Below, piece after piece: positions 8,178 through 57,909 of a DNA stretch of 64,000 nt. The position numbers and the translations under genes were made by a program. Numbering within the stretch: the first letter of the stretch is position 1; the number at the start of each line of letters is the position of its first letter. This DNA comes from Schmidtea polychroa (taxonomy: Eukaryota), in assembly GCA_044892525.1 (NCBI GenBank), contig CM097885.1, positions 2,172,001 through 2,236,000 on the forward strand. The letters are read 5' to 3'. The notes under the pieces are model-generated. The model was not told the origin of the DNA. It ran no database searches and saw only the letters and a list, made by a program, of their open reading frames with translations.

Positions 8178-36980
<28,803 letters not shown>

Positions 36981-37025: not shown

Positions 37026-39027
37026 CAGTTTAAATCATTTAGGAAGCACAAATAATAAAAAAATAAAACCCTTACTCAAGCAATCATAAAATGCATGCAC
37101 AAACAATATAGATACAGTCCACACATCCACAAACAATATAGATACAGTCCACACACCAACAAACAATATAGATACAGTCCAGGCATCAACAAACAATATA
37201 GATACAGTCCAGGCATCCACAAACAATATAGATACAGTCCACACACCAACAAACAATATAGATACAGTCCAGGCATCCACAAACAATATAGATACAGTCC
37301 ACACACCAACAAACAATATAGATACAGTCCAGGCATCAACAAACAATATAGATACAGTCCACACATCAACAAACAATATAGATACAGTCCAGGCATCCAC
37401 AAACAATATAGATACAGTCCAGGCATCCACAAACAATATAGATACAGTCCACACACCAATAAACAATATAGATACAGTCCAGGCATCAACAAACAATATA
37501 GATACAGTCCACACATCAACAAACAATATAGATACAGTCCAGGCATCCACAAACAATATAGATACAGTCCAGGCATCCACAAACAATATAGATACAGTCC
37601 ACACACCAACAAACAATATAGATACAGTCCAGGCATCAACAAACAATATAGATACAGTCCACACACCAACAAACAATATAGATACAGTCCAGGCATCAAC
37701 AAACAATATAGATACAGTCCACACACCAACAAACAATATAGATACAGTCCACACATCAACAAACAATATAGATACAGTCCACACATCAACAAACAATATA
37801 GATACAGTCCAGGCATCCACAAACAATATAGATACAGTCCAGGCATCCACAAACAATATAGATACAGTCCACACACCAACAAACAATATAGATACAGTCC
37901 ACACATCAACAAACAATATAGATACAGTCCACACACCAACAAACAATATAGATACAGTCCACACATCAACAAACAATATAGATACAGTCCAGGCATCCAC
38001 AAACAATATAGATACAGTCCACACACCAACAAACAATATAGATACAGTCCAGGCATCAACAAACAATATAGATACAGTCCAGGCATCCACAAACAATATA
38101 GATACAGTCCAGGCATCCACAAACAATATAGATACAGTCCACACACCAACAAACAATATAGATACAGTCCACACATCAACAAACAATATAGATACAGTCC
38201 AGGCATCCACAAACAATATAGATACAGTCCACACACCAACAAACAATATAGATACAGTCCAGGCATCAACAAACAATATAGATACAGTCCAGGCATCCAC
38301 AAACAATATAGATACAGTCCAGGCATCCACAAACAATATAGATACAGTCCACACACCAACAAACAATATAGATACAGTCCACACATCAACAAACAATATA
38401 GATACAGTCCACACATCAACAAACAATATAGATACAGTCCACACATCAACAAACAATAAAAATCAATTATTCACTCCATTTTCTGAATTTCATTTCATTA
38501 ATTTATTTCTCTATTTCATATCGGTTTAAATATTATTATTTTCATTTTTTATAATAGTAAGCAGCAGTAAGTTTTAAATTTACCGCGCAAATATTTTATC
38601 TGTAAACAAAGATTCGAGATCTCTGTTATGAATTACATCTAGAACCAGAACATTGGTATTAATATTCATGTGGGCTCTATATATTATTAGAATGAGTTTA
38701 TTTAAACAAAGATTCATATTTCGCGCAATAATATTAGCATATGAACAAATACATTCGACATCTCCATTGAAAACTATTAAGGAAAGTTTAAAGTCTCGTT
38801 AAAATGTCTCAAATTTTCGATGAACTGTCATAAATAAATAGGATGAAAATATTTCAAAGTCCATTCGGACATCACCGAATTTTTGAAAATTATCGATTGA
38901 TTTTACATTTTCTTAATTCCTGGAAGAACTTATAAACTTTTCGAGGATTTTATTTTTGAGTTTTCTTAGTTACATCAAGACGCAAATCTTTTATGAAGAA
39001 TGCCTCGACTAATTATGTCGCGTTCCC
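37026..39027 (-). mobile_element. Inverted second copy of the 30860-31840 element with an expanded array
   Basis: 38460-39027 is the near-identical reverse complement of 30860-31430; 37026-37100 mirrors 31768-31840. Confidence 0.9.
37101..38457 (+). repeat. 30-bp minisatellite, 45 units: AAACAATATAGATACAGTCC plus a variant 10-mer
   Basis: 10-mer variants ACACATCAAC, AGGCATCCAC, ACACACCAAC, AGGCATCAAC recur. Confidence 0.98.
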
Positions 39028-39142: not shown

Positions 39143-40295
39143 AGTAGTAAGATGTGTCACCTCCAGGACATGTCACCTCCAGGACACATATATATAAGTA
39201 GGTCAAGTTAAAATTAAGTAGATCAAGTTAAAATTATGTAGGTCACGACTATATAGGTATTAAAATATGTAGGTCAAGTTACTTTAAATATATGTTACCT
39301 CCAGGACACTATATAAATAAATAAGTCAAATTAAGTAGGTCACGACTATATAGTTTATAAAAAATATGTAGATCAAGTTATTTTTAACATGTATCCCTAT
39401 AATATATACATCATTCAAAAGATATTTGAGAGTAGAGTACAATGATCATACCTTCAAAGGTGTATGGTGAATCCCTAACCTTCAAAAGGTGCAAAACCCT
39501 CGAATTTTTTCAAACTCTATAATACATGTCATTCAAAAGGTAATTGAGATGTGAGTATGATGGTCATACAATCAAAGGTGTATGGTGAGTCCTTCACCTT
39601 CAAAGGGTCAAAAAATTTCGAATTTTTTCAAACTTTATAATATATATACATCATTCAAAAGGTATTTGAGAGTAGAGTGTGATGGTCAAACCTTCAAAGA
39701 TGTATGGTGAGTCCTTACCCTCAAGTGTCAAAAACTTTGATTTTTATTCAAACTGTAAATTGATCATTTCAACAAATCTTTCAATCCCCAAAATAAATTT
39801 CCCAACTCAAAAATTTCCCAAATTTTAAAAATTCCCAAAAACAATTTTCCCAACTCAAATTTTTTCAAAAATTAAAAAGTCCCAAAAATGAAATTCCCCA
39901 AATTTCCCAACTCAAAATTTTTCAAATTTTAAAAAGTTTTCAAAACTATTTTCCCAAATTTTCCAACTAAATAGTAAAAGAATGTTTTACAATTTTTTTT
40001 TTCCTCGAATACATCAAACCAAAAATTTAACAAGGTTCGTCACACAAATCTAATTTTGAAATCAAACAAATGAATTTAATAAAAATTAAAATCATCGACA
40101 TACACAACAGCCGTTCGCCCGCCCGCCCGCCGCCGCCCGCCCCGAAGGGGCTGGCGCGGTAGTTTGTAAATTTGGTTTAGTTTGAATATTATTTTGAGTA
40201 TTAATAACAAAGGTAAAGAAATAAATGTTTATTAAATGTATATAGTATGATACTCATTAATATACATTGAACATGCTTTACATTTGCGAACATTT
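39143..40295 (+). repeat. Left terminal inverted repeat (a further segment, 40855-40911, also matches the right end)
   Basis: Reverse complement of ~54144-55389; contains 16-bp ATGTCACCTCCAGGAC repeats, three ~120-bp subrepeats and a GC island. Confidence 0.95.
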
Positions 40296-40789
40296 GAATC
40301 ATGGCATTTAGAACATACAATTACATGTCCGCAAGGTAAAAACAAAACCGATACTTGATTTTCTTTACAAATGTAACAAGTTAAATACATTTTCCTACCA
40401 TCATTGAGTTTTTTCCTTAGCTTATTTTCAATCAATTCGGATTTCGATATCCATTCATAAATCAATCTACTACTATATTCTGGTTCCAGCCTTAAATCCA
40501 TACAATTCCAAAAGCATTCATTCAATGAATCATTATCTACTATTGCTTTGTCTAAATGCATCAAATAAATCGATAACTTCAAAATGCATTTATTGTAATT
40601 AAATCAATCAATCAAATATCCAATGGAGGAATGTTTGAAAATTTCTAAAATTTTTATGGTTTCCTTTTCAGTGAGAGTATCATAATTGTTCATAAAATCT
40701 TCAACGGTGCAGTTTAAAAACTTGAATGATCTCGTGGTCATCAGTAATTTCTTAATAAATTTATGAAAATACTTATATTCTGCACACAT
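40232..40789 (-). pseudogene. Polinton IAP-type C3HC4 RING protein (putative E3 ligase) with one in-frame TGA
   Basis: ORFs 40604-40789 and 40232-40582 share a frame (GYLID*FNYNKCILKL). C-terminal CYICKENQVSVLFLPCGHVIVCSKC..KCKACSMYINEYHTIYI. No BIR seen. Confidence 0.8.
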
Positions 40790-41149
40790 TTATAAAAGAT
40801 ACATTAAAACAACTCATTTATTAAACAAGAAAATAATTTAAAATCAATAATGGTAATTTTAAGGATTATCTTCGATAGATTTTATTGAATAATGGTTCAT
40901 TAAAAAGGTCTTGAAGAGCTCTATCCAATGGTTATATATTTGAAGATATAATGTTTGTGCACAATATAGTAAGTATTATTATTTTTATTATTATTTTTAT
41001 TAACAAACTACATTCTAATAAAATACTTTTACACATCAAATTATTAAAAAAAAAAAAAAAAAGAAAACCGATAATTATAAAACGAAAAAGAGACTTTACA
41101 ATAATTTCTATTTTACAAAAATTCAAACAAGTCCGATCACAGAATTAAA

Positions 41150-44100
41150 TTAATCTTGTAGATGTTGATTGATGAGATCGGGATCTGCTCCTGATTGAAT
41201 ATCATTATCGTCATTATCAATGACATCAACCCCTAAATAATGACCATATGCAAAACTAGAGTTTTTCTCTACCCAAGCTCTTTTATCATCATGATTAGTT
41301 AAAGCAATCTTTGAGTTTTTAAAGGTAAAAAGCTGATGATTTCGGGTTCCTATTCTAGTCTGAGGTACAGAAATAACTGTGTTGTTGTTGTAACAGTCTA
41401 AATAAGATTGATGTTTTATATCTGTACCTGGTAATTTTACGCCCTTAGCTCTCATAGTAGATTTATTTCCTAAAAGACTGTAGCACTTTGGTCGCAAGAA
41501 AACCCACTCACTATATCCTACACCCTTACTCTCATCCTTAAACTTTCCTATAACTGAGTCGAGTCTCCTAGAATATAAAGGATGAGAGGGATCATAATTT
41601 GAGGTGTCTAACAAGTCATCCGAAATCATCGCTGGCAAAAGAACGTCAAGCTTTACATTTTTGACCTCTAAGAAGAAACTATCGGTATCACCCGCAACTA
41701 TATTTATATCACAGTTAAACTGACTCCTATATTTTGATAATTCTATGTACTGTAATTGATACATCCTTAGTTTGGATAAATCCAGCACTGATTGTCCGAT
41801 GTAGCTGGGTCTATCCAAACATATAGACTCCTTATTGAGATGTACACCAAAAAGATCATCATCAATTTTGATGGTTTTTCTAAATGATGGTTTTGATGAA
41901 TATGTAATTAATTTTTCCGCGGAATTACATAGTCGTAAATTTAATCTCTTCTTAAGGTTTTCAACGGATTTACCGTACAAGCTATTATTATACAATTTGA
42001 ATAAATCTCTGTACAGTTCACTGCTTGCTTCAGCTCTTAGCTGTGTATTTTTATTTATATAATTTTTAAAAATCGGTGCTTGCTTGAATTTTGTAGCTCT
42101 ATGGATGTGTACAACTTTGGCACCAAGAGACAAATAAAGCTTGAGAAGCCTCCAATGAAGAACATGGTTCTTCTTTGGCCAATGCGTGAGCATCAACTTC
42201 TCAACTTTCGAACCAGGCGGGCACATTTTCTCAGGAGCAAGAGGAAAGTCATTTAAGAAATCATGAAAAATTTCTGGAATATCTATATCCACTTCTATGG
42301 TATAACCATAGGGAAGGATTTCAATGTCAGCATTCATGCACTCAAGCAATACATCATTCAATCCATCATACACCCAAGTGAAATCAGCAAAAGGAAGATT
42401 TTGGCTAAGAGCCCAACCATACAGATTATTTATATCAATATATAATAATTCTGTATTATCAGAAGCAGCAACGTAATGTTTGTTAACAAATGTTAACCCA
42501 CCACGTATTCCTCCTTCGTAAAAATTGAACATTTCCATGTCCTGTAAAAGTTCTATAGGCTCAGTTAATGTCATAAGCGCTGAGGCCCATGACATACCCG
42601 GAATACCATAAAAGTTTAGAGGTTCTAGACCATTGTATGCAATGGCCTTGGCACGGAATTGTTGGAAATAGTCCGCAAGGAGGAATACATCCAATTTTTG
42701 ATAAGTTAACATATAGTCAGCCAATTTAGTACAACGTTGTTGAGTCCAAATAAGTTGAGCCTTAGCATACTCATCTTCAGTAACACCAGACCAAATAGGA
42801 GGCAATTCATAAGTGGTTTCAAGTACATCCAAATCAGTCGCATAATCATAAGGAAATATGGCTTTAGCATCTATTATTAACCTATCAAAAACCGACGAAG
42901 TCAAAGGAAGATCAGTTAGAGTTTTTACAGCCTTAGCCAAAGAACAATTAACAAATTGTATGCTGTCGATAAAACGAACAGCTAATTTTTTAATGTGAAC
43001 AATCATCGAGATAAATTTCTCTGTGCTTGTGGGTATTATATTCAAATTCCAAGAAGGAAAGCCATTGAGACCATATTTTAAAATATGGTGTAAGTCGTAG
43101 CCTCGTAAATTATGAAATACAATCGGCAGCTGTTTATAAATTCTGCGAGCCATATTACATTTCCTACAGGCTGCACCGAGATAATTACCAGTAAAATGGT
43201 CATGATCTCGAACAGCAAGGGATAAAACCTTCTTGCAAAGATAGCAGTTCCTACAAGATTTGAATTGTCGTTCCTCAGCAAAAGTCATAGGTCCTAACCG
43301 TTTTTTCCCTTCAAGCTCATAATAAGGTAGGACAATTGTGACAGCAATTTCCTCTACTTTTTTAAGAAATTGAGGTATACAATCAGGACCATAAAACTCG
43401 TAATACGATTTTCTATTGTTAAGATTATTTATTAATAAAAGACCTGCTGAAATAGGTAAATGTATTTGATGATGTTTAACATCTTTAGGTAAAACCGATT
43501 CAAAATCGGCATAAATAACAAAGGGTGGGGTGATTCTCTTTGAATGATTTTGAAACTCTAAATATTTATTTTCGGGTAAAGTGTAAAGGGTTGTACCCGT
43601 TTGATTTTTACTGCATAGGGCCACATGTTTAGTGAAAGCATTGTCTAATCGAAAACCGTTAAGACAATGTGGGCACCATTTGCATCTTATTTGAATACTA
43701 CAGTCATTATTACGATGGCAGTTCATTAAACGTGTAATGTTGGTCACTGCGGTGTAATGATAATTATCCTTATTTTCCAAGAGTAATAAATAAATTGGAG
43801 TACCGATAGTAACCGTTGATCTGTGAATTATACTTAAGTGGGGGTGTTTAAAAACATAGTCATTAGGAACCTGATCATCATCAACTATCACAGTAGGGGT
43901 ATAAGCCAGAACATTTATGGCAAGATTTAAGTCTAAATTTTTCTTTTCGAATTTAGGTATATTACACAATTTCATCGGACAATCCGTGACTTCATTGTAA
44001 TTAAGAATATTTAAAAGATTTTCATATTTTGAAACTCTTTCAGGGTGGCTACCTATTTCATCTTTTTTCAAGAGCGCGAGAATACTATAAAGGAAACACT

Positions 44101-45227
44101 TATGATCCTTATTTTTAACATTAATAATTGCTCCTTTAGATTTCAAATCTGCGGGTGTACGAATGTAACTATGACCAGATAGGCGACAAATAGGAGCAAA
44201 TTTAGTCAGAATGAAATCAATCTCTAAGATATTAATTACTCTCCAGCCACTACCTAAATAGGTAAACTTTTCAATTTTTTCGTTTAACTTATTAACTCCC
44301 TCAATTAAAAAGTTATCCGAAAAGATCTCCGCGTTATTTGAAAAGTAGTTGTCACGGATTTCCCCATCTTTTTCAAATCTTATAAGAATAGCGAATTGAA
44401 TTTTGACGCTACCCATGTTATTTATTTCAGATGTTAACTTTTCAGTGATTTTATCCGTTATTATAATTTTAATTAATTGTGAATCGGCAATATTAAATCG
44501 AATAGTTCGAATGGCGCCATTTAAATTTGATTCTATTATCGGCTCAATCGCTAAAGATGATCCACCTATTTGATTTATAGTATTTATAGTATTATCATTA
44601 TTTATATTTTCATTTATAGCATTTATAATATCATGATTTATAGTATATGTAATATTATTACATTCGTCATCACTGAGTAGAATGACTTCATTTTTAATAA
44701 TTTCGTCGTCACTGATCTCAATAACTTCAGTTTTTATAATTTTATTTTTAATTTTAGACACCCTATGTTCAGCAGGTCTTTTATTAGATTTCTTTTTTGT
44801 GTTATTATTTAAAATATTTACAATTTCAATGTTATTCTTATTTATTATTTTAAACAGTTCTTGTTTATTTGTTTTGAAAGAATTTAAGTGCTGAGAATGT
44901 TGACTATAAAATTCCTTATACCTTACACTCTGGGAAGTTTTGCATATGGGGCAAATAAAAAAGTTGATGCCATTAAAAGGTTGGCGATAATATTTCTTCA
45001 TATTTTTGTGGCATTTATTGTCATGACCCATAGACGAATTACAATATTTAGGATAAAATTTGCCTAATAAAAGTTAAATAATTATTTATTGAATGAAAAT
45101 GTATTATTTATTTAATAATAATAATAATAATAATAATAAATGTAATTTAATCTTTCATTTAAAATTTGTCTATAATATTATCAACTATAAAATAATTAGT
45201 TAATGTTAAATAATGCTAAGTTATTAA

Positions 45228-45317
<90 letters not shown>

Positions 45318-45950
45318 TACTACTACTATTACAATTACTATTATAATTATTACTATTACAATTACTATTTTAATGATAACTGAAATAATTTACATAAAGT
45401 TATATTTACATTATATTTACATAAAATCTATATTATTATTAAGTTATTAATTAATTAAAAACTATATATTAATAAAATGAAACATACATTTTGATTCGTT
45501 ATTCGAAACTGAGTCCCCAATAGGGATGGGAGCATTCAAATTATACGCAACGGAGGTATCCACTACTGCGGCATTTATTATTGGAAAATTCTTGTTATGA
45601 GAAACAGAAGATTCTAAAATGTTAATGGTAATACAATTTTAATTAAACTAATAAATTACCATTTTGGAATATGTTTGAAATATCTAATATGTCGTCATTT
45701 TCGGTAATTGCGGCCCAATCACCAAAATAATTGTCTAAATAATAAAGATAATAATAATAATTAAAGTATTTATAATAATTATAAATATACCATTTCCATC
45801 ATTTCCAGAACCTAATCGCCTATTGAAGACTGACGAGTTAACGGTACGAGTTTCTAATTGTAAATTTAATTATTTAATATAAATAAATAAATAAAAATCC
45901 TTACCATTTCTCGAAAGAACCACATTGATTTTAGTATTAATTGATGACAT
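41150..45950 (-). CDS. Protein-primed family B DNA polymerase (pPolB), 5 exons, ~1407 aa
   Basis: Exo motifs IYADFES, FHNLRGYD, YQKLDV; pol motifs YIDINNLYGWA, KLYNNSLYGK, GDTDSF; EndoVII-like insert CYLC..RDHDHFTG..GAACRKCN. Exons 45950-45905, 45853-45791, 45734-45660, 45613-45488 and 45063-41150 splice in frame via GT-AG. Confidence 0.95.
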
Positions 45951-46114
45951 TTTAAAATTGTAATAAAATAATTATGATGAAATTTGTATTACAATTGTTT
46001 ATAACGTGATAATATGCCTTTGTTAATCATGCACGGAGCATGCACCGTTCATGACGGACTTTGTTATTATTGTAATAATATAAAACATAATAATAATTAT
46101 AAAAATAATAAAAC

Positions 46115-46155
<41 letters not shown>

Positions 46156-46206
46156 ACATAATAATAATTATAAAATAATAAAAACACATTTTTATAAAAA
46201 CATTTA

Positions 46207-46582
46207 TTATTTAATAGACATAAGCCATCCTAAACAATGTTGTCCGCACGTACGAGTTAAAGGGTGTTGATACATTGTTTTATTATATACAATAGGTTTG
46301 CCCATTGTTTGTAGTTTCGAAACCAATAAAGCAGGATAATAGAAACCCATAGGATCGAATACATGTATCTTATCTGGTTTCATATAGATTGCAATCCAAT
46401 GCTCTCCGCCGAGATGAGATGAATGGGTATTGACGATTATGGCTTGATTATTTTTCAAAAATGGTATTTTATCGAGAGGAAAACTCCTAAAAATTCATTT
46501 CCTAATATTTGTTTTCCAATTCGATTAACCTGAACAGAACTATTTTAATAAATTAAACAGTATAAAAAACAACTTACTCCAT
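46207..46582 (-). CDS. Adenain-like cysteine maturation protease; one intron (46540-46577) and a 1-nt frameshift at 46480-46483
   Basis: Reconstructed MDSVQVNRIGKQILGNEFLGVFPLDKIP..IVNT..GEHWIAIY..FDPMG..YQHPLTRTCGQHC (catalytic H, D, Q, C). An in-frame upstream ATG lies at 46609. Confidence 0.9.
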
Positions 46583-46609
46583 GACAACTTTCTGTATTTC
46601 TGTATACAT

Positions 46610-47831
46610 TTATACCAGAACCGTTCTATTTGCAGTAATTTGAACTTCATTTTCAAATACTCCATATATTATAACATGCACAGGTTCTGTAATAGCTTTT
46701 GCAAACTTTATATCTAATCGTAAATTTCCATTTTGAGGTAATTGACTCTGATTCAAATCAAAATCTGGGGCCAAAACAAATGTAAAGAATGGATATTTGG
46801 TTTTGAATTCTTCAAGAGTTATGCCGCAATTCAAATTTTTATCTAAATATCCCATATTTCTAACAATACTCTGCATATATGTAGCACAGTAATTGTCACT
46901 ATCGAAATCTTGAGTATATGTTTCTCGATAATCAGTATTTTTCGACAAAGTTAGAGATGTAACACCAAAGGTTTTGAAAATTGAGCTTGAGGCACTATAT
47001 GAACCATTATATTGTGCTTCACCTTGAAATGTTACCAGAATAAAGTTTGGCATTCTTCTATCTCCAAATATTTGTTCCTTATAGAAGGAAGAAGCACCTT
47101 TGGCTATTGCAAATGAAACAATTTCTTTTTTTTTCAGAGGATAGATTGCATGCTTAGAATTAAGACCCAACTGATGACCTGCTAATACCGACGGATCAAC
47201 TCGAACTCTTCTTACTAGTAATTTTGCATCAACTAATTGACATATTGGTTGACCAGCACCACTAGTTAATGATAAAGAAGAATCGGTTCTTTTCAGTCTA
47301 ATGTGTACATTGACTCCTGGAAGTAAATATTTTGGTTGATCCATAAAATCGAGTTGTAATGATGAACACATGGTGAAAATCTTTGAGCCTTTAATCCATT
47401 TTTTCCGTTCGTCATCACTTGCTGCATAACCCATAGGAGTAAGACATGTATTTTTGGTGTCGGTATTATAATTTAAAAGTTTCTATTATCGCCTTGTGGA
47501 TATATGTATTGTTGCCACCTTCAATCTTGATATTATTAAATCCAAGAATAGCATCTTTAAAAAGTGTATGAAACAAAAAATTATTAGGTATTGTAGCATC
47601 AGCATCACCCAAAGCCTTTTTATCTTTATCTATAACCTTGATTTGAACAGTCAATAAAGTATCATTCAAATCTAAATATTCTGTTTGAGAACCATTGATG
47701 TAAAATTCTACATCATTTCTACTATCGGTAATTGAATTCATAGGAAAAACTTCCTCAAATGCCCCAAATTCTATTACAGCCTGGGGCGATGGTCTATCAA
47801 ATATGCATAATTCAGATTTACCACAAATCAT
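46610..47831 (-). CDS. Double jelly-roll major capsid protein (PY) with a frameshift at ~47475-47478
   Basis: KSELCIF N-terminus, VEFYING..YLDLNDT, NTYIHKAIIET/LNY, DFMDQPKYLLPGV, GNLRLDIKFAKA..VIIYGVFENEVQI. The two ORFs join at a T-run. Confidence 0.92.
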
Positions 47832-48196
47832 TTTGCAAATATAGTTCCATGTCCTTTCATTCGTTTGTTTATACGTGATATTCCATGTCTTTTACGTTTT
47901 GGAGCTGGAGCTGGAGCTGGAGGTTTTTCTTTTTGAAACATACCTGCAACCCCGGGTAAAACTTTCCCTAATTCAGCTAAAGCATTTGATTTTAGAGATG
48001 GTAATATTTTCTGTTCATTCATAATAACATCTTTTGCAGTTTTCATACCAAAACTACCAATACGTTTAAGAATAGGCAATGCAAATCTACCAATTGTTCT
48101 CAACCATCCCGATCCGTACTGTTTACCAATAAAATATGGTAATTCACCGCCAGATTGGCTATCACTATACATACTAATAATATCAGAATTAGCCAT
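47828..48196 (-). CDS. Conserved Polinton virion protein (PW/gasderminX-type) with amphipathic helix
   Basis: QSGGELPYFIGKQYGSGWLRTIGRFALPILKRIG motif, basic C-terminus, located between mCP and MCP. Confidence 0.75.
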   Translation of the reverse strand: MANSDIISMYSDSQSGGELPYFIGKQYGSGWLRTIGRFALPILKRIGSFGMKTAKDVIMNEQKILPSLKSNALAELGKVLPGVAGMFQKEKPPAPAPAPKRKRHGISRINKRMKGHGTIFAK

Positions 48197-49232
48197 CTAC
48201 TTTACGAAAATGTAATGTCAAATGAGTTTTTGAACCTTTTGGAAAGTTTATAAGTTTTCCACTATCATCACGAATATTTATTTCTATATTGTTTATACAT
48301 GAACTTGCTATTGGTAAATACATGGGATTATCGATATTTATATTGACAACTTCATCATGTTCATATTTTCCAATCCATACCGATTTCAAAAGAGGAACAC
48401 TGGAATCACCAACAATTATGGGTTCGATAATGTTAGTATATATGAACATTTGTTGATGATGTTCTAGTATTCTTGGTTTGCGTATACCAGTCGATTTTTC
48501 TCTATATTTTTGCTTATCTAATCCAAGTGAATTTGCCAAATTTTTATCAAATGTAACTTCGCAAATATCCTCATTCAAACTGAAGGTAAACATCAAATCT
48601 TTCACAATTTCCAAATTTTTAAATATGTGTGAACAATTGAACTTTAAATATTTAAGTAATACATCAAGTTTATCAAAATATAATTCATCAGCAAAGGTGA
48701 ATGATTCTTCAACTTCATCATTATACGACACAGATATTTTGATTTCTTCTTTCACTATACTGTTTGCTTCAAATAGATTAAAACGTAATAAATACTCGGT
48801 CTCCATAACAATATTTTTCAGCTTATTGCAACCCATTCGTTTGGCATCTTCAATAGTTTCGAATGTTATTGTAAATGGTTTAAAATCACAACTGATATTT
48901 AATCCATCCTTGTAAAATATATAGCAATGCGAATCTAATATTTGGTTCGGAATATGATATGTTTTATCATAATTACTGATAATAAAGATACCGCTACATG
49001 TTTTCACAATATTCCTTTTGAAATCAATCTTACATTGACTATAAAATGGGAATGTGTTGTACACGAATGTAAAATCTTGCAGTGCAACTTCCCAGTCACC
49101 ATTTAAAGAAATCGGATTCTGGAGATTGACCATAAATTTACTGGCTTGATTGTCTAGATGAATTAATGGGCAACTATTGCTCGGTAAAATAGTATAAAAA
49201 TTCACTTTACTAGGTCCTTTGCTGATATCCAT
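48189..49232 (-). CDS. Single jelly-roll minor capsid/penton protein (PX)
   Basis: FYTILPSN..DNQASKF..LQNPISLNGDWEVAL; MFIYTNIIEPIIVGDSSVPLL; IEINIRDDSGKLINF..LTLHFRK. Start at ATG 49232 (or 49256). Confidence 0.92.
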   Translation of the reverse strand: MDISKGPSKVNFYTILPSNSCPLIHLDNQASKFMVNLQNPISLNGDWEVALQDFTFVYNTFPFYSQCKIDFKRNIVKTCSGIFIISNYDKTYHIPNQILDSHCYIFYKDGLNISCDFKPFTITFETIEDAKRMGCNKLKNIVMETEYLLRFNLFEANSIVKEEIKISVSYNDEVEESFTFADELYFDKLDVLLKYLKFNCSHIFKNLEIVKDLMFTFSLNEDICEVTFDKNLANSLGLDKQKYREKSTGIRKPRILEHHQQMFIYTNIIEPIIVGDSSVPLLKSVWIGKYEHDEVVNINIDNPMYLPIASSCINNIEINIRDDSGKLINFPKGSKTHLTLHFRKVDG

Positions 49233-49831
49233 GACGGGTTTTGATAACCATGCCATTTGACATAGTATTGTTTATCCTTGCCGACCTTTTTAGTTTTCAA
49301 TATTATTTGAATTCTAAATACCTTTGGAGGAGGAATGACTTGTAATTCCTGCCCATAAAATTTCCCTTGTACAATATTATTATCACTGTCTTTGATGACA
49401 TACATTACAGGATTCTGTTTAGTATTTATTTTTGAAATTACAAAGACTTCATCACTCCAATTTGTATCAAAATTTTTAATAAATGGTGATGCACTAATTT
49501 TACTAATTCTAACATGATCACCGACTTTATATTTAGGTTTTGCAATTTTTACAGATTTCTTAGAATAGAATGTTTTTGATGTAATATCAACCGGTCTTAA
49601 TCCATTCAGTCCTCGATGTGATGAATGATTATAACTTGTTATTATTTTCGGTAAAGCATTTACCCATTTTTTATTACCTTGATGCACGAACAATTTCTTT
49701 AATCTATCTCTCAATGTTCGATTAAATCTTTCAACATGGGCAGCTTTGTATTGAGAATGTACCGAGTAGTGATTTATTTTCAGTTTATCGAGGATTAGCT
49801 TAACTTTGCTATTGTAGAATTCTTTACCTAA

Positions 49832-49914
<83 letters not shown>

Positions 49915-50302
49915 CCAAATCTGTTTGCAAGTTATTAGGATGTCCATCTTTAAATAAAATATTAATTGCCTTGGACATTTCATCTGCAGATTTTGCCTTG
50001 ACTGGTATTGCTCGTGCAAACCTGCTGGTTACATTAATACATGTTAAAATATATTTATTCCCATTGTTAATTTTCGAATAGGGTATCATCTCCATCAAAT
50101 CCATTTGCCATAAATCGTCAATACCAAATGTTTTATAGGCTCTTGTTGGAAATCTTTTCCGCATTGGTTTGTTCAAACTGTACGCAAGCTGATCTGATAA
50201 CCACTTCTGGGTTTCTTTTTTCGAATTCGGAACTCTTTTCTTTAATTTTGCCACTCCATCGAAACCGGCTTCGTCTTCTGGGTTCGTCCAAATCTTCTCC
50301 AT
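49202..50302 (-). CDS. Retroviral-like DDE integrase with C-terminal chromodomain; 87-nt intron 49828-49914 (337 aa spliced)
   Basis: WQMDL, LQTDLG|KEF, VERFNRTL, YNHSSHRGL, YYVKWHGY..SWI. The poly-Ile insert is a GT..AG (ATT)n intron. Confidence 0.95.
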
Positions 50303-50360
50303 TACAGCAAGAAGATTTAAAATTAAAATTTAAATTAGGTAATGAAGGATTAGCACCCAT
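50133..50360 (-). CDS. Small overprinted ORF with N-myristoylation motif (hypothetical)
   Basis: MGANPS (G2, S6), SSCC and basic RRRSRFR; ATG 3 nt after the upstream stop; overlaps the integrase in another frame. Confidence 0.45.
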   Translation of the reverse strand: MGANPSLPNLNFNFKSSCCNGEDLDEPRRRSRFRWSGKIKEKSSEFEKRNPEVVIRSACVQFEQTNAEKISNKSL

Positions 50361-50363
50361 TGT

Positions 50364-50897
50364 TTATGATTGATTTCCTACAACTCCACCTAATAATGAT
50401 AATGCCAGAGGTATCAATGCACCAATAAATCCACCTTGTTGTTTATATATAATTTTCCTCATTTGCTTACGATTTTTATTATTTACTAATGATAACAAAG
50501 TTTTCCTATGTTTGCTCAATAAATGCTTTTTTGATTTACTGATTTTAATTTTGCCTTTGACTACTTTAAGTATAATATTGAGTAAATCATTGACAACAAA
50601 ATTTGGGAATGATTGCAATATATTCATTCTTTTCATACTCGGGGCCTTTAACAATGCATTAAAAAATGGAAAACTGCGATGATTTTTAATTACTTTTTTA
50701 CCGGCTTTACGGGTTTTACGGGTTTCACGTTTAGGTTTAGGATTTTTCGAAATAAGATTCATTGCAGAGAAATTTTCAGTTACAAGTTTTTTAGATGGTG
50801 TATAACTAGTTGTTGGTGGAACCTTTTGAACTTTAATACTCTTTTTAATACTTTTTCTTAATTTCCTAATATTTTTCACCCTTGCTTTTAGAAACAT
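50364..50897 (-). CDS. Lys-rich core protein with adenovirus pX/Mu-like C-terminus
   Basis: Highly basic body ending KQQGGFIGALIPLALSLLGG, resembling adenovirus pX GG/ILPLLIP. Confidence 0.75.
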   Translation of the reverse strand: MFLKARVKNIRKLRKSIKKSIKVQKVPPTTSYTPSKKLVTENFSAMNLISKNPKPKRETRKTRKAGKKVIKNHRSFPFFNALLKAPSMKRMNILQSFPNFVVNDLLNIILKVVKGKIKISKSKKHLLSKHRKTLLSLVNNKNRKQMRKIIYKQQGGFIGALIPLALSLLGGVVGNQS

Positions 50898-50915
50898 TAT
50901 TATTCATAGAGGTTT

Positions 50916-51542
50916 TCAACTTTGTTTATAAACCATGGCACCTTTTGGGTTGAAAATATCTGTTTTTACTCGTAAATCATCGGGACATTGTTGTGTGAAA
51001 TCAAGAAATATATATCCATGAGGTATTTTTGTAGCATCTTGAAATGCACTGATAAGAAAATTACGATTGTTAGGGTATGCTTGACGTGCAAGAAAATCAA
51101 TCACTGTTGCATCTCTAGGATTCTTGAAAATAACTAAATATTGTACATTTAAATTACGTGTTCGATGTGCACCACCTTGATGAAATAGATTTTGAGTTAT
51201 AAAAATAACAGTTACACCAACGTGTCTACTGATTTTGGTAAATAAATTATTGAAATTCTTTTCTTTATTAGCTTCTTGATACAAGTCATCAATAATTATG
51301 ACATCCCCCTTCTTTAGTCTACTGGACCAATTTTTATCAAATCCCTCTACTATTTTCATATTTTTCAATTTACAGAAACTTGATTGAGTCAATCCGTGTT
51401 CTTGATCAGCACCTCGATGCCAATACATTTTGTTAAATTTTGATTCAAATAAATGTGATTTTAGTAATTTGCAAACAAACAAAGTTTTGCCGCTACCACT
51501 TGGTCCGACTATTTGATATACAGCATCATTTCTTAGTTCCAT
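50916..51542 (-). CDS. A32/FtsK-HerA family DNA-packaging ATPase
   Basis: Walker A GPSGSGKT, Walker B IIIDD, SRH..VIFITQNLF, YLVIFKNPRD. Confidence 0.95.
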   Translation of the reverse strand: MELRNDAVYQIVGPSGSGKTLFVCKLLKSHLFESKFNKMYWHRGADQEHGLTQSSFCKLKNMKIVEGFDKNWSSRLKKGDVIIIDDLYQEANKEKNFNNLFTKISRHVGVTVIFITQNLFHQGGAHRTRNLNVQYLVIFKNPRDATVIDFLARQAYPNNRNFLISAFQDATKIPHGYIFLDFTQQCPDDLRVKTDIFNPKGAMVYKQS

Positions 51543-51666
51543 TTTTAATATTTATTTAAAAATTAATTTTGTTTATATCGTAAAGAATAAATTGATTTAA
51601 TTACTCTATAATATAACATATATATATATATATATATATACTTGATTTTTTAAATATTCAGTAGAA

Positions 51667-52172
51667 ATGTTGACAAATATTAATTATAGAGGTCGTGTGT
51701 CTTTGGAAACTGTTGGTATGATGAATTTCCCCAAGTGTAAACCACAACAATATGTTGACAAAACTGGAAAATATACTATTATATTTTTCAAAAATGGTAA
51801 ATGTCGTATAATGGGTTGTAAGAAGCCTATCGAATTCGAGAATTTGCAATATAATATCAAAGATATTCAAGTCTTACTATAGCTACCAAGGTTGAACAAT
51901 CTATTAATTTGAATAATTTAGCAAAGTTATTAGATGGAGATTGTATATATGAGCCTGAATTATTTCCCGCTCTGCGTTATACAAAATATAATCCACTATG
52001 TGTTAATATATTTTCGAGTGGTAAAATAGTTGTACTAGGTATTAAAAATTTAGATTTTCATACTATTGTTGAAGGAATTATAAACGATGTAAAGGATTTG
52101 ATTGGATCTTTAACAATTTCTTCAAATATAAGTAACGAGGATTTGCTTGAATATTTATTCAACAATGATTGA
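51667..52172 (+). CDS. TATA-binding-protein (TBP)-like protein, ~168 aa, with a frameshift at ~51870
   Basis: Repeat 1: LTNIN..TIIFFKNGKCRIMGCK. Repeat 2: IQSLTIATKVEQSINLNNLA..YEPELFPALRY..PLCVNIFSSGKIVVLGIK. Compare TBP IQNMV..IRLEGL..YEPELFPGLIY..LLIFVSGKVVLTGAK. Confidence 0.88.
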
Positions 52173-52533
52173 ACATGAAGGTAACTGTTTTTATTTTAAA
52201 TTTACTGATTTTTGTTTAGAAACTATACTAAAAATTTTGATTGATAAAATTGAAGATTTTTATCCGAATTTGAACAATTCCTTAATGTATTGTGCTCCAG
52301 AAGTTGTGTTTTACAAAATTTATGAAATAACTGGAATAAATGTAATAGATTTAATTCATATGGATCATGCTACGATTACATGTTATACCGATGATGTTGA
52401 AAATTGTGATTTTTGTAAAAATAATATGCAGAATACTTGTGGGGATGATAGTTGTACATGTTTTGTAAATCTACAGAAACGAGAAATAATTCATGCATTA
52501 CTTGTGGAATTGCGAAAAAATGTATTGTTGTAA
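52165..52533 (+). CDS. Hypothetical Cys/His-rich protein, possible Zn binder
   Basis: ATG 52165 overlaps the TBP-like 3' end; H..TC..CDFC..C...SCTC cluster; AATAAA right after the stop. Confidence 0.6.
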   Translation: MIEHEGNCFYFKFTDFCLETILKILIDKIEDFYPNLNNSLMYCAPEVVFYKIYEITGINVIDLIHMDHATITCYTDDVENCDFCKNNMQNTCGDDSCTCFVNLQKREIIHALLVELRKNVLL

Positions 52534-52735
52534 TAAAATATAATTATATTTGTTTTGTGATAACCTTAATTAACCTATAATATTTCTTTGTGTACAATAA
52601 ATCATTTCAGACTTTGTTATTTAGCATAAAATGAACTAGTTGATCACGTTTTGATCATGCCTGTCACTTGAAACTTGTTTACAATGAAATTAGTATAAAA
52701 TATCTGGTTCAAATTATTAAATATTATAACTACAA

Positions 52736-53330
52736 ATGGATAATCAAATTACAGGTTTGTTGTCGTTTACACATATTCCATTTAGTAGTTTTTTAATCTA
52801 GGAGTTTTGAAGAGAAAAAATGCAGATGCCGCTCAGGAATTCGGAAAAAGGAAATTTAAAGAAGCGACATTATCCACGGAAACCTTGGTCAATGTTCGAG
52901 TGGATACAAAAAAGCCAGTCGAATTCATGCAATACAAACTAAATTATTTGTATTGTCCAATTTCCTATACATTTAAGGTAAGTTTCTATAAATTATTTTG
53001 GATTTTATTATTATTATTATTTATTGTTAGGAACCAGTAACTCTGGAAAAATGTTTCTACAATGTGAGACTTTCCAAAATCAAGTTTCACGACAAGATGC
53101 TATTGGGACAATTATTTCAGAGGATCAATGAAAATATTGAATTTGATGATGAAGATATGTTCATTAGAAACGATTTGGATATGATTCCCAATGGTGGTAA
53201 GATGAGCAAAATAACCTGCATGGTTACCATATTAATTCAAGGGTATAATGTAAGCAGAGACCGAATCAAACCAATTTGGAAAATTATAAAAGCCGAAGAT
53301 AAGTTTGAAGAGGAACATTGTTCATGTTAA
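52736..53330 (+). CDS. Spliced hypothetical protein, putative OB-fold ssDNA-binding protein; exons 52736-52754, 52802-52977, 53031-53330
   Basis: In-frame GT-AG splicing; TATAAAA at 52694; KRK motifs (NLS-like); C-terminal VTILIQGYNV..IKPIWKIIKA plus acidic tail. Confidence 0.6.
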
Positions 53331-53402
53331 ATTTATTTAATACATCTTTATTAGTGTTTTGGTGTTTTTAAATCATTGAAAATAACTAAAGTTTTAAATT
53401 TA

Positions 53403-53790
53403 TTAATCTTCAATACAATCTCTTTTCATTATATTTTCAACAATATGATCAATACAATTAGTAAAAACAATAGATTCATCTTCTTGTTTAGATTCATTTG
53501 GTAATTTATCTGTTGTAGAATTCTCAATACATGACTTAAGTTCTTCACTAGGCAAATCAGTATATTCATCTTCTTGCTGGGAAATATTTTCAGATTCATA
53601 TGACATATCATCTTCATTAATTTCATCGTCTGAATACGGCCATTTTAATTTCTCTGGAACATTCATAAATTCTCTAATTTTTACATTAGATATTTCCTCT
53701 AATTTTTCAATCAAAAAATTGATTATATATGCTAAATAAAAAAAAAAGAATTAATAAACATAAAATTCATATTTTACCTTTTTCCGACAT
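53403..53790 (-). CDS. Spliced acidic hypothetical protein; exons 53790-53778 and 53731-53403
   Basis: MSEK|AYIINFLIEKLEE.. in frame across a 46-nt GT-AG intron; D/E-rich. Confidence 0.6.
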
Positions 53791-54078
53791 GGTTGAAAAT
53801 AATTAAAATGAAAAAATAATTATGTTTATACTATTATTCAAAAGTAACAAGATGATCGATAGATAGATTATAAGAAAATTAGATATTTCAACACGATACA
53901 TATAATAAAAAGACAAGCAAACTTGCAATGATATTTAACGTTTCAGTTTTTACATTTTTTAAAATATTTATTTCAATTATTTCAACAACACAAAAAGTGT
54001 CAATTTTTTTACTAATTAATTTTCAGCCTAACCTACAACTTTTCACAAAAATCCAAAAAAAAAAAAAAAAAAAAAAAG

Positions 54079-55389
54079 AGACCTTTTTAATGAACCATTA
54101 TTCAATATAATCTATCGAAAGTAATCCTTAAAATTCAAATTTAAAATGTTCGCAAATGTAAAGCATGTTCAATGTATATTAATGAGTATCATACTATAAA
54201 CATTTATTTCTTTACCTTTGTTATTAATACTTTGAATATTGTAAATAATAAAACTATGTATCAAATAATAATATTCAAACTAAACCAAATTTACAAACTA
54301 CCGCGCCAGCCTCTTCGGGGCGGGTGGCGGACGGGCGGCGGGCGGCGGGCGGCGGGCGGCGGGCGGCGGGCGGCGGGCGGCGGGCGGCGGGCGGCGGGCG
54401 GCGGGCGGGCGGGCGGGCGGCGGTTGTGTATGTCGATGATTTTAATTTTTATTAAATGCATTTGTTTGATTTCAAAATTAGATTTGTGTGACGAACCTTG
54501 TTAAATTTTTGGTTTGATGTATTCGAGGAAAAAAAAAAATTGTAAAATATTCTTTTACTATTTAGTTGGAAAATTTGGGAAAATAGTTTTGAAAACTTTT
54601 TAAAATTTGAAAAATTTTGAGTTGGGAAATTTGGGGAATTTCATTTTTGGGACTTTTTAATTTTTGAAAAAATTTGAGTTGGGAAAATTGTTTTTGGGAA
54701 TTTTTAAAATTTGGGAAATTTATTTTGGGGATTGAAAGATTTGTTGAAATGATCAATTTACAGTTTGAATAAAAATCAAAGTTTTTGACACTTGAGGGTA
54801 AGGACTCACCATACATCTTTGAAGGTTTGACCATCACACTCTACTCTCAAATACCTTTTGAATGATGTATATATATTATAAAGTTTGAAAAAATTCGAAA
54901 TTTTTTGACCCTTTGAAGGTGAAGGACTCACCATACACCTTTGATTGTATGACCATCATACTCACATCTCAATTACCTTTTGAATGACATGTATTATAGA
55001 GTTTGAAAAAATTCGAGGGTTTTGCACCTTTTGAAGGTTAGGGATTCACCATACACCTTTGAAGGTATGATCATTGTACTTTACTCTCAAATATCTTTTG
55101 AATGATGTATATATTATAGGGATACATGTTAAAAATAACTTGATCTACATATTTTTTATAAACTATATAGTCGTGACCTACTTAATTTGACTTATTTATT
55201 TATATAGTGTCCTGGAGGTAACATTTATTTAAAGTAACTTGACCTACATATTTTAATACCTATATAGTCGTGACCTACATAATTTTAACTTGATCTACTT
55301 AATTTTAACTTGACCTACTTATATATATGTGTCCTGGAGGTGACATGTCCTGGAGGTGACATGTCCTGGAGGTGACACATCTTACTACT
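54079..55389 (-). repeat. Right terminal inverted repeat with internal deletion and expanded (GGGCGGC)n
   Basis: 54144-55389 mirrors 39143-40295; 54079-54135 mirrors 40855-40911. Confidence 0.95.
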
Positions 55390-55392
55390 TAC

Positions 55393-55813
55393 AAACAATG
55401 CTTAGCAATACACAAACAATGCGTAGCAATACACAAACAATGCGTAGCAATACACAAACAATGCTTAGCAATACACAAACAATGCTTAGCAATACACAAA
55501 CAATGCTTAGCAATACACAAACAATGCTTAGCAATACACAAACAATGCGTAGCAATACACAAACAATGCGTAGCAATACACAAACAATGCGTAGCAATAC
55601 ACAAACAATGCGTAGCAATACACAAACAATGCGTAGCAATACACAAACAATGCTTAGCAATACACAAACAATGCTTAGCAATACACAAACAATGCTTAGC
55701 AATACACAAACAATGCTTAGCAATACACAAACAATATAGATACAGTCCAGACATCCACAAACAATAAAAATAAATTATTCACTCCATTTTCTGAATTTCA
55801 TTTCATTTATTTA
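55393..55813 (+). repeat. 21-bp minisatellite AAACAATGC(T/G)TAGCAATACAC (16 units) grading into one 30-bp unit and its usual flank
   Basis: After the array, AAACAATATAGATACAGTCC...TTATTCACTCCATTTTCTGAATTTCATTTC matches 38431-38500. Confidence 0.95.
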
Positions 55814-56903: not shown

Positions 56904-57196
56904 ATTGGAAGCTATTATTCCAACTTATGGCAGCATCAGTAAAATGGAGTTTCTAAGAATAATCTCCAATAATATTGAAATTTGAAATTTTTATATATTA
57001 ATTATATTTTATTATCAATGTCTAAAAATAAAAGTTCTAATTTAGTATTATTGGAGTTTAATTAACTATATATAAAATAATTACTTGCGCGTAAAAGTCG
57101 CTGCAGCCTATATGCATAATTTCTATGTAACAATGAATGAATATTAATTAATTATTAGTTATTGATTTTTTGTATATATTTTGTATATCAATTTTG

Positions 57197-57562
<366 letters not shown>

Positions 57563-57909
57563 GCTCTGTGGTTTGATTTTAAACTTTTAAAACAAAGAAA
57601 TAACAAATTATCTAAAATTGAAATTTAAACATGAAAAATACAATTTTATAATATCTTATCATATAATTTTTTAATTTAAATTAGTAAACTGTTTTAATAT
57701 TAATTTTATTGAAATAGATTTTGAATTTAGAAGTAAATTGTTTTATTTATTATTTATTATGTCGAGGCGTCTCATCTGAGCATTTACTTTTAATTATTTA
57801 TTTACTATTGATTAAAACAGAAAAATGTTATTTTTCTGGGATTAACGCAACAATTCCTATAGAAAGCACTCTTACTAGAAATTGTTCCCGTATAATTTCT
57901 TTCTATTCA

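Follow-up and report, generated by a model that had tools for sequence, protein, structure and literature searches.

In ordinary TATA-binding proteins (TBPs), two tandem repeats, each with the order S1-H1-S2-S3-S4-S5-H2, form a saddle. Each of the two repeats carries two intercalating phenylalanines, and a central asparagine and threonine form hydrogen bonds with the minor groove. The E-P-E-L of the C-terminal stirrup contacts TFIIB, and the side formed by the stirrup and helix H2 of repeat 1 is the TFIIA side. TBP folds are also encoded by viruses, among them giant viruses, which carry their own RNA polymerase, and herpesviruses, whose viral TBP (vTBP) recognizes a variant form of the TATA word in late promoters and recruits the host RNA polymerase II (Pol II). 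Polintons (Mavericks) are units of 15–20 kb between terminal inverted repeats, with a protein-primed type B DNA polymerase, a retroviral-type (rve) integrase and a virion module made up of an A32/FtsK-type packaging ATPase, an adenain-like protease and major and minor jelly-roll capsid proteins. To our knowledge, Polintons and adintoviruses are thought to be wholly dependent on the host for transcription, and we know of no account of how the expression of their genes is timed. Here we describe a 64,000-nucleotide stretch of Schmidtea polychroa DNA (the window hereafter; assembly GCA_044892525.1, contig CM097885.1, forward-strand positions 2,172,001 to 2,236,000) that contains an adintovirus-like Polinton of about 16 kb with a TBP-like gene inside its terminal inverted repeats (TIRs). 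Sequence comparisons support that this is a bona fide, conserved Polinton gene for a minimal TBP paralogue of 150–170 residues.

A gene labeled 'TBP' appears in the Figure 5 legend of Starrett et al. 2021 (PMC8502044), in MELD viruses with an adintovirus-like type B DNA polymerase (PolB). The available portion of that article does not describe the truncated repeat, the distribution, the selection or the promoters of the gene, and neither 'TBP' nor 'TATA' occurs in one of its supplementary files. Full-text literature searches returned no description of a Polinton TBP besides this legend. A first-pass annotation of the window, made from its letters only, had known of no description of a Polinton TBP, a statement to be revised in the light of the legend label and retained insofar as no fuller account was found. 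That such viruses may carry a TBP gene is not an entirely new idea, and the finding is more general than first thought; as far as our searches reach, there is no earlier description of the truncated architecture, of the distribution across the clade, of the selection or of the promoter word presented below. Of two further articles, one mentions TBP homologues in mirusvirus-like elements of a green alga (PMC10675990), and the other reports, for a planarian, that Polintons are among the transposons silenced by piRNAs and that TATA boxes are present in only 5% of promoters (PMC10558129).

Two adjacent open reading frames (ORFs) were detected on the + strand between positions 51667 and 52172 of the window: frame A (51667–51882), which opens with MLTNINYRGRV, and frame B (51855–52172), which holds YEPELFPALRYTKYNPLCVNIFSSGK. 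Frame B matched the Pfam TBP family PF00352 with an E value of 2e-12 (47.2 bits, for a cut-off of 22.9 bits), and frame A matched it weakly (E = 0.044, 14.1 bits, under the same cut-off). As sister copies in the genome read through, the two ORFs constitute a single gene, in agreement with the initial proposal of one two-repeat TBP-fold gene, which the full-length frame of the sisters, the Pfam family and the fold match all support. The N-terminal part (51667–51870, the 68 codons of frame A before the break) was delimited from the ORF, the weak Pfam match and the in-frame continuation in sisters, and encodes a shortened first repeat. The C-terminal part (51873–52172, frame B, 99 codons plus stop, assigned by Pfam) encodes a complete second repeat, which has the YEPELFP stirrup and helix H2 and is followed by an additional acidic/hydrophobic helix at the C-terminus. 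The break between them, at 51868–51872, had been interpreted as a one-base frameshift (CAA[A]GT) in a gene for a protein of about 168 residues, and both details proved wrong. The gene measures 503 nucleotides (nt) in the window and 510 nt in intact copies such as L004, so that the window copy is 7 nt short, with the consequent shift in frame; a contig of sequencing run X1 has 7 additional letters at 51868, and the intact protein has 170 residues. The 1-nt frameshift was rejected on the basis of the 7 missing nt, and a short intron was also rejected, as the GT...AG stretch at the break is 12 nt long, which is too short. Four sequencing runs, the kind of which we guessed, yielded contigs that cover the gene (X1) or its 3' end (X2).

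The position of the gene inside the TIRs and its divergent orientation relative to the virion operon were as first described: inverted-repeat comparison placed the left TIR at 39155–40002 and the right TIR at 54530–55361, and the divergent neighbor is an A32-like packaging ATPase gene at 50916–51542 on the − strand (Pfam Pox_A32, E = 6.9e-07, 29.4 bits, cut-off 22.8).

Further copies were sought in the host genome (781 Mb, 1012 contigs) with the C-terminal 99 residues as query, as had been suggested in the first-pass annotation. Of 3482 first-look candidates 150 were scored, and all 150 were 100% identical over the 99 residues, revealing at least 150 near-identical copies; open frames of at least 170 residues were present in 140 of them. 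Thirty loci were cut out, including the window, and 26 of these contained a full-length frame for a 170-residue protein, with the frames of the other four limited to 105 (the window), 114, 136 and 147 residues. Over 3.3 kb, the 29 sister loci were 93.4–99.6% identical to the window (median 99.3%), a sample biased to young copies because it was picked by identity at the TBP C-terminus, and in every one of them the ATPase gene adjoins the TBP gene. When the window ATPase was used as query, the 150 matches scored among 5022 first-look candidates were all 98–100% identical. The genome holds at least three subfamilies of the element, with TBP-like proteins of 170, 156 and 154 residues, and all of them keep the divergent ATPase/TBP architecture. 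The ATPase and penton of subfamily 3 are 92% identical to those of the window, whereas the TBPs of different subfamilies share only about 50% identity, with BLAST aligning just the conserved core (67 residues, 64%). This difference indicates that the accessory arm has diverged faster or has been exchanged, with the gene still being kept.

The ratio of non-synonymous to synonymous substitution rates (dN/dS, Nei-Gojobori method) was 0.18 between L004 and L121, on 14 synonymous and 11 non-synonymous changes. Between subfamilies the values ranged from 0.15 to 0.31, with saturated dS, and the close pair L004/L117 gave 0.12 on 6 changes. Two young pairs gave 0.66–0.78 on 4–15 changes, as expected for decay after insertion. 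These estimates, a check also proposed at the outset, support that the TBP-like gene is under purifying selection between diverged lineages.

An AlphaFold2 model was obtained for an intact sister copy, with a mean pLDDT of 92.0 and a pTM of 0.79. In this model repeat 1 is formed by strands 2–10, 28–31, 37–41 and 45–51 and a five-residue H1 helix (13–17), with no long H2, and no element is missing from repeat 2, where a long H2 (134–156) is followed by the extra C-terminal helix (159–168). Foldseek comparison with the Protein Data Bank (PDB) produced 44 hits at E ≤ 1e-3, each listed one being a TBP or a TBP-containing complex, with E values around 1e-9, template modeling (TM) scores of 0.59–0.67 over about 170 columns and 20–27% sequence identity. 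A profile search of PDB sequences retrieved 35 sequences, all of them TBPs (best E = 4e-22). Moreover, hhalign against seven ordinary TBPs gave a probability of 99.5% and an E value of 1.3e-22 covering both repeats, with a 13-column gap at the position of helix H2 of repeat 1. The fold checks that had been proposed (Pfam, profile alignment and AlphaFold/Foldseek) pointed to a TBP throughout, and the gap, together with the model, agrees with the early impression that the N-terminal repeat lacks most of its basic helix. The protein is predicted to adopt a two-repeat TBP fold, with the shape of a saddle and a repeat 1 without H2.

Conservation was assessed in an alignment of 26 sequences, consisting of the intact L004:1288–1797 and 25 database homologues. 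In the C-terminal repeat, residues E98, P99, E100, F102 and P103 of the YEPELFP stirrup and F118 of the IFSSGK motif are invariant in all 26, and stirrup position 101 is either L or I. In the N-terminal repeat, at least 90% of the sequences retain F41 (FFKNGK) and most rows the asparagine of NINY, the YNPKRF-type stirrup is absent, and the position aligned to the phenylalanine of PKRF is variable, mostly Y, F, C, I or L. The residues that had been pointed out from the window alone, namely the stirrup and both phenylalanines of the C-terminal repeat and the asparagine and single phenylalanine of an N-terminal repeat missing YNPKRF, were in this way found to hold for the family. In the register of hhalign, the central asparagine of repeat 2 is replaced by an invariant serine (Ser71), and the threonine of the TGAK strand by an invariant Met49 in repeat 1 and by Leu126 in repeat 2. 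Because of the serine at the asparagine position and of Met49 and Leu126 at the threonine positions, an altered DNA specificity is plausible. The protein may also be competent for TFIIB binding, as suggested by the invariant stirrup. The isoelectric point (pI) is 8.2 or higher in 22 of the 26 family members, and the window-type protein is near neutral (pI 7.6) owing to its acidic tail. This tail takes the form of a short acidic/hydrophobic helix at the end of the genomic TBP subfamilies (NEDLLEYLFNND in the window, 52132–52172; EEYEILNFLL in L112; EGNEFLDFLL in L113) and is absent from the metagenomic homologues; from its sequence it looks like an interaction or activation motif.

The gene extends well beyond the planarian genome. 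Database searches yielded 76 homologous proteins at E ≤ 0.01 among 80 candidates, all with PF00352, and the full profile search collected 3613 representatives at E ≤ 1e-3, 786 at E ≤ 1e-10 and 65 at E ≤ 1e-30. Of 373 metagenomic stretches 181 were confirmed, and 80 loci of these (289.6 kb) were kept for the analyses below. PF00352 scored 56–63 bits in the relatives L034, L085 and L089. Pfam analysis of 36 ORFs from three long loci identified an A32-like ATPase, an rve integrase (with chromodomain) and DNA_pol_B_2 beside the TBP gene, as well as PLA2-like, C2H2, RING and KilA-N genes nearby. One or more Polinton hallmarks (homologues of the ATPase, the integrase, PolB, the capsid or the penton, detected by tblastn) were present in 26 of the 36 loci of at least 3 kb. 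In L057, L063, L070 and L072 the TBP gene follows the capsid gene. A PLA2-like gene lies just upstream of the TBP gene in L085 (3982–4395), L089 (9086–9487) and 12 more metagenomic loci; it belongs to Pfam Phospholip_A2_4 (E about 1e-10), a parvovirus-type phospholipase domain. A phage collection gave no match. In the viral_contigs set, scans with the window ATPase and with an ATPase alignment found no relative in 5 and 216 stretches, respectively, and a scan with the TBP alignment found one distant locus, L031 (1/21).

In an unrooted tree of 46 rows, the 37 family rows, for part of which the label 'Polinton' was verified by context, form a single clade with a support of 100/97 that was recovered in 100% of 200 bootstrap trees; two long rows, P0197 and P0145, were flagged. 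Outside this clade fall three host TBP paralogues (L122–L124), a plant TBP, two archaeal TBPs, an IMG/VR locus and two small TBP-like proteins. The comparison with host TBP that had been called for at the beginning consequently shows a separate clade. Besides L122–L124, the TBP paralogues of the host genome include L126 and L127.

The ATPase and TBP genes of the window are separated by a divergent spacer of 124 nt (51543–51666), which contains an (AT)n tract at 51618–51640, of different length in different sister copies, as their upstream YIYI... reading frames show, and an initiator-like word, TCAGT (51658–51662), 7 nt ahead of the TBP ATG. Within the spacer, the core TTGTTTATAT is kept in all three genomic subfamilies, the surrounding spacer having diverged, and its reverse complement holds the 9-mer TATAAACAA. 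This word occurs at nine sites on both strands of the 64 kb, compared with a shuffle mean of 4.18, and six of the nine are on the − strand within 45995–51577. One is located 26 nt upstream of the ATPase ATG (51569–51577), another 24 nt upstream of the ATG of a 177-residue ORF (50922–50930), and a third (50439–50447) inside the 3' part of the ORF at 50364–50903, upstream of the integrase; a site between the homologue of the 177-residue ORF and the integrase was also found in L049, L053, L055 and L082. The remaining three are 92 nt upstream of a 122-residue ORF beginning MANSDII (48289–48297), 33 nt upstream of the putative capsid start, MICGKSEL (47865–47873), and downstream of the protease ORF (45995–46003), where no ORF of at least 60 residues lies within the next 200 nt. 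The sites at 17214, 23034 and 25073, outside the element, were treated as chance occurrences because the window contains no further Polinton genes.

In the 80 metagenomic loci the same word was found 82 times, compared with a mean of 11.4 in 100 dinucleotide shuffles (sd 3.2, maximum 21). Seventy of these sites share the strand of the TBP gene, and 61 lie at most 60 nt upstream of an ATG that opens at least 60 codons, with a sharp mode at 23–36 nt. When sites within 70 nt of the first ATG were counted by gene class, the word was found before 8 of 26 ATPase genes, 6 of 9 homologues of the 177-residue ORF (X179), 3 of 10 capsid genes, 3 of 14 PLA2-like genes and 37 unclassified ORFs, and before none of 75 TBP genes. 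The upstream regions of 46 non-redundant TBP genes were instead enriched in ATCATAA right before the ATG (16 observed, 0.9 expected), TATAAAT (11 and 1.5) and TATATAA (9 and 1.4), and several of them also contain CCAATCA. These patterns can be read as two promoter classes, with the TBP gene under a host-type TATA box plus initiator and part of the virion module under a TATA-type word specific to the clade. A literature search for the TATAAACAA string gave no Polinton work among the matches listed.

From the observed fold, conservation, selection, copy number, genomic context and promoter word we infer DNA binding, its target, the TFIIB contact and an early/late order, combined in the following model. 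The TBP gene would be read early from a host-type core promoter, consisting of a TATA box or (TA)n and an initiator-like word near the ATG, with CCAAT in many relatives. Its product would sit like a saddle on the promoter word TATAAACAA of the element, 23–36 nt ahead of the start codons of the packaging ATPase, the capsid and other genes, and the invariant YEPELFP stirrup would recruit host TFIIB, or a TFIIB-like factor, and Pol II. The virion module would then be expressed independently of host TBP/TFIID, or in competition with it. That the element encodes an early TBP paralogue that nucleates initiation by the host polymerase on its own TATA-type promoters, probably through TFIIB, is in our estimate about an even bet. 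The broader proposal is more tentative, and we put it somewhat below even: that a whole clade of animal-associated Polintons and adintovirus-like viruses may use a two-tier transcription program centered on a virus-encoded minimal TBP, with a remodeled underside recognizing TATAAACAA and with recruitment of host TFIIB and Pol II.

Several observations weigh against this model. The word was present in just 34 of the 80 metagenomic loci, and the counts include near-duplicate contigs; in addition, none of 16 integrase, 11 penton and 3 PolB genes had the exact word within 70 nt of the first ATG. It contains the canonical TATAAA, which host TBP could use unaided, it also fits the forkhead-factor consensus, and it could double as a polyadenylation signal in such tightly packed genes. 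The position of the TBP gene varies, from divergent to the ATPase in the window to upstream of it in many metagenomic loci. Finally, Ser71, Met49 and Leu126 stand in these replacements where ordinary TBPs have the asparagine and threonine for minor-groove contact, and one N-terminal phenylalanine position is variable, so that TATA binding of the ordinary type is not assured.

These same replacements, in a protein that has lost H2 and the stirrup of repeat 1 and has kept the C-terminal stirrup invariant, are what a decoy would be expected to show, that is, a competitor with a crippled DNA-binding underside that titrates host TFIIB (or BRF1, NC2 or Mot1) and so damps the transcription of the host or of rival elements; the near-neutral pI of 7.6 and the acidic tail of the window-type protein fit with this as well. 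However, three of the four intercalating phenylalanine positions are invariant or nearly so, 22 of the 26 members are basic and the saddle is predicted with high confidence. In any case, a pure decoy would not explain the sharply placed TATA-type word before the virion genes of the clade, and we regard this explanation as unlikely. A DNA-binding role outside transcription, in which the TBP fold would bend or mark AT-rich DNA for packaging, for initiation of terminal replication or for integration, together with the packaging ATPase, seems similarly improbable. The gene does adjoin the A32-like ATPase in the window, as in the 29 sister loci and many of the metagenomic ones, and TBP-like folds have other DNA-related roles in some proteins. 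Nevertheless, that adjacency is not universal, as the gene comes after the capsid in L057, L063, L070 and L072, and conservation peaks at the stirrup, the surface to which TFIIB binds in ordinary TBPs, and not at any ATPase-specific feature. Moreover, the TIRs contain no repeated TATAAACAA or comparable word, with just the one-mismatch ATATAAATAA at 39311 and 55205.

A function with RNA polymerase III (Pol III), or another polymerase, would have the protein pair with BRF1/TFIIIB-like factors and drive small RNAs of the element. The same stirrup region contacts BRF in solved Pol III complexes found among the structural matches (4roc, 6cnb, 8ffz), and BRF1-like genes and many TFIIB-like ones are present in the host genome, but the fixed distance between the promoter word and protein-coding start codons makes this explanation very improbable. 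Genes for tRNAs or small RNAs were not seen in the element, although no search aimed at them was made. There is hardly any room left for a decayed, functionless one-off capture of a host TBP, a scenario that the first-pass annotation had set as its own refutation and that the frameshift of the window copy, and the capsid, protease and integrase of this copy that also look damaged, could at first sight evoke. The gene is intact in 26 of the 30 loci, it is present in three subfamilies and in the 181 confirmed metagenomic stretches, and it shows a dN/dS of about 0.18 between diverged lineages. It also belongs to a separate clade (100/97) and is only 20–27% identical to solved TBPs. Recent capture from the host was rejected on the basis of the dN/dS and the separate clade. 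The view of the first-pass annotation that this is an asymmetric Polinton TBP gene and not a decayed host capture was in this respect sustained, its single-base frameshift being the part that had to be abandoned. The model preferred here for the TBP paralogue is still initiation on the TATA-type promoters of the element.

The Polinton itself spans 39155–55361. Its arms comprise two pairs of inverted segments, 39155–39822/54694–55361 (668 nt) and 39811–40002/54530–54721 (192 nt), both 99% complementary. A RING-finger ORF on the − strand (40232–40603; zf-C3HC4_3, E = 2.2e-10) borders the inner end of the left arm, and its last 20 residues recur in the right arm at 54145–54204 (+), so that the inverted repeat may extend inward, seemingly into the coding region. 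The order of genes on the − strand is a 1307-residue polymerase, a protease fragment, a putative capsid, a penton-like gene, the integrase, the 177-residue ORF and the A32-like ATPase. The protein-primed type B DNA polymerase (41150–45073, a 1307-residue frame) was identified by its homology to that of L034 (tblastn E = 0), which in turn matches the polymerases of L085 and L089, where Pfam DNA_pol_B_2 is detected with E values of 7.4e-24 and 2.1e-21; in the window polymerase itself Pfam gives only an Endonuclease_7-like stretch. The protease is an adenain-like fragment of 95 residues (46207–46494, −; Pfam Peptidase_C5, E = 4.6e-06, 26.9 bits, cut-off 21.3). The putative major capsid protein (46610–47891, −) is encoded by two overlapping ORFs in different frames, 47466–47891 and 46610–47482, with homology to metagenomic loci down to E = 1e-120 in tblastn; both this and the penton assignment are based on position and conservation in related metagenomic contigs. 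The integrase (49202–50329, −) matched rve (E = 2.5e-4) and Chromo (E = 3.9e-3) under the Pfam cut-offs, which its homologues in L085 and L089 exceed, and it is interrupted in frame by a poly-Ile microsatellite of about 30 isoleucine codons, with a comparable run in the subfamily 3 locus L113. The 177-residue ORF, a stop-to-stop frame, corresponds to 50364–50903 (−). On the + strand, a cysteine-rich ORF of 122 residues (52165–52533), the ATG of which overlaps the TBP stop, belongs to no Pfam family. It is kept in L121 (72–90% identity) and, weakly, in L112 of subfamily 2, and had no match among the metagenomic loci.

Outside the TBP gene, too, the window copy seems damaged or altered, as seen in the capsid split between two frames, the protease ORF of just 95 residues and the integrase microsatellite. 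The element is flanked by simple and tandem repeats, one of them (37035–38529) open in several frames, with a 21-nt-type repeat just beyond the right arm (55344–55778) and a trinucleotide run of about 400 nt within 57148–57628. Contigs of run X2 end in non-templated runs of T or A at 50872 (− strand), 44 nt beyond the ATPase stop codon, and at 53356 (+ strand), 26 nt beyond that of the ORF at 53031–53330, in a manner resembling polyadenylation sites. As regards TFIIB, the canonical host gene is split by an intron, and the full-length TFIIB of a close relative (P0214) is 92% identical to the host exon. An intronless TFIIB-like ORF of 301–310 residues, with zinc ribbon and cyclin repeats (L137:1180–2094 and L139:2274–3188, both −), was also found in at least 13 copies, clustered at C3:38.2–39.1 Mb and C1:23.8–24.2 Mb. 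In L139 it is contained in a tandem unit of about 7.77 kb, with flanks repeated at identities of up to 100%. Apart from a 137-residue frame in repeat DNA, no other ORF of at least 120 residues is present there.

A conserved and selected element TBP, together with a sharply placed word, provides a testable model of early/late control for these viruses. At 150–170 residues, the protein would be among the smallest natural two-repeat TBPs, and the absence of one H2 makes it a natural experiment for asking which surfaces a TBP requires. Any derepression of the element, which is present in at least 150 near-identical copies, would co-express a paralogue of a general transcription factor, which could affect the host.

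Compared with cellular TBPs and TBP-related factors (TBP, TBPL1/TRF2), the Polinton protein is alike in a predicted saddle of two tandem repeats and a structural match over the whole length, and, with respect to TBP, in a C-terminal repeat with the YEPELFP stirrup, both phenylalanines and H2. It differs in its small size of 150–170 residues without an N-terminal tail, in a repeat 1 lacking H2 and the YNPKRF-type stirrup, in the serine at the asparagine position of repeat 2 and the methionine or leucine at the threonine positions of the TGAK strands, and in conserved cysteines in GKCRIMGC and PLCVN. Furthermore, it is encoded by a mobile virus-like element and belongs to a clade apart from the host L122–L124. 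The 'TBP' of MELD viruses is similar in being a TBP homologue of mid-size linear dsDNA viruses related to Polintons; it is a figure-legend label from the section on non-animal datasets, and it is likened here to the Polinton gene by that label.

Virus-encoded TBP folds of giant viruses (Nucleocytoviricota), such as the putative TBPs found in Heterosigma akashiwo virus 01, Terrestrivirus and ChoanoV1, along with the asfarvirus B263R homologues, were the best matches in a library of viral structures, with 25 hits at E ≤ 1e-3 and a top E value of 4.5e-08. These proteins are mostly longer (186–842 residues among the 25 hits), share 8–21% identity and match less well than cellular TBPs do. Unlike giant viruses, the Polinton has no RNA polymerase gene and must therefore use the host polymerase. 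The late-gene vTBPs of beta- and gammaherpesviruses (BcRF1/ORF24/UL87) offer a functional analogy in this regard, that of a DNA virus of the nucleus which, lacking an RNA polymerase of its own, encodes a TBP fold. They are large (577–1005 residues), act in a multi-protein complex, partners of which kind were not identified in the Polinton, and are not homologous in sequence to the Polinton TBP, to which BcRF1 and U58 showed weak structural matches (E = 9.2e-3 and 1.2e-3, TM 0.34–0.42), so that the likeness appears to be one of function and not of membership in the vTBP family. Should the two-tier program prove true, a 15-kb virus would possess its own core-promoter recognition factor, independently paralleling the late-gene TBP mimics of herpesviruses.

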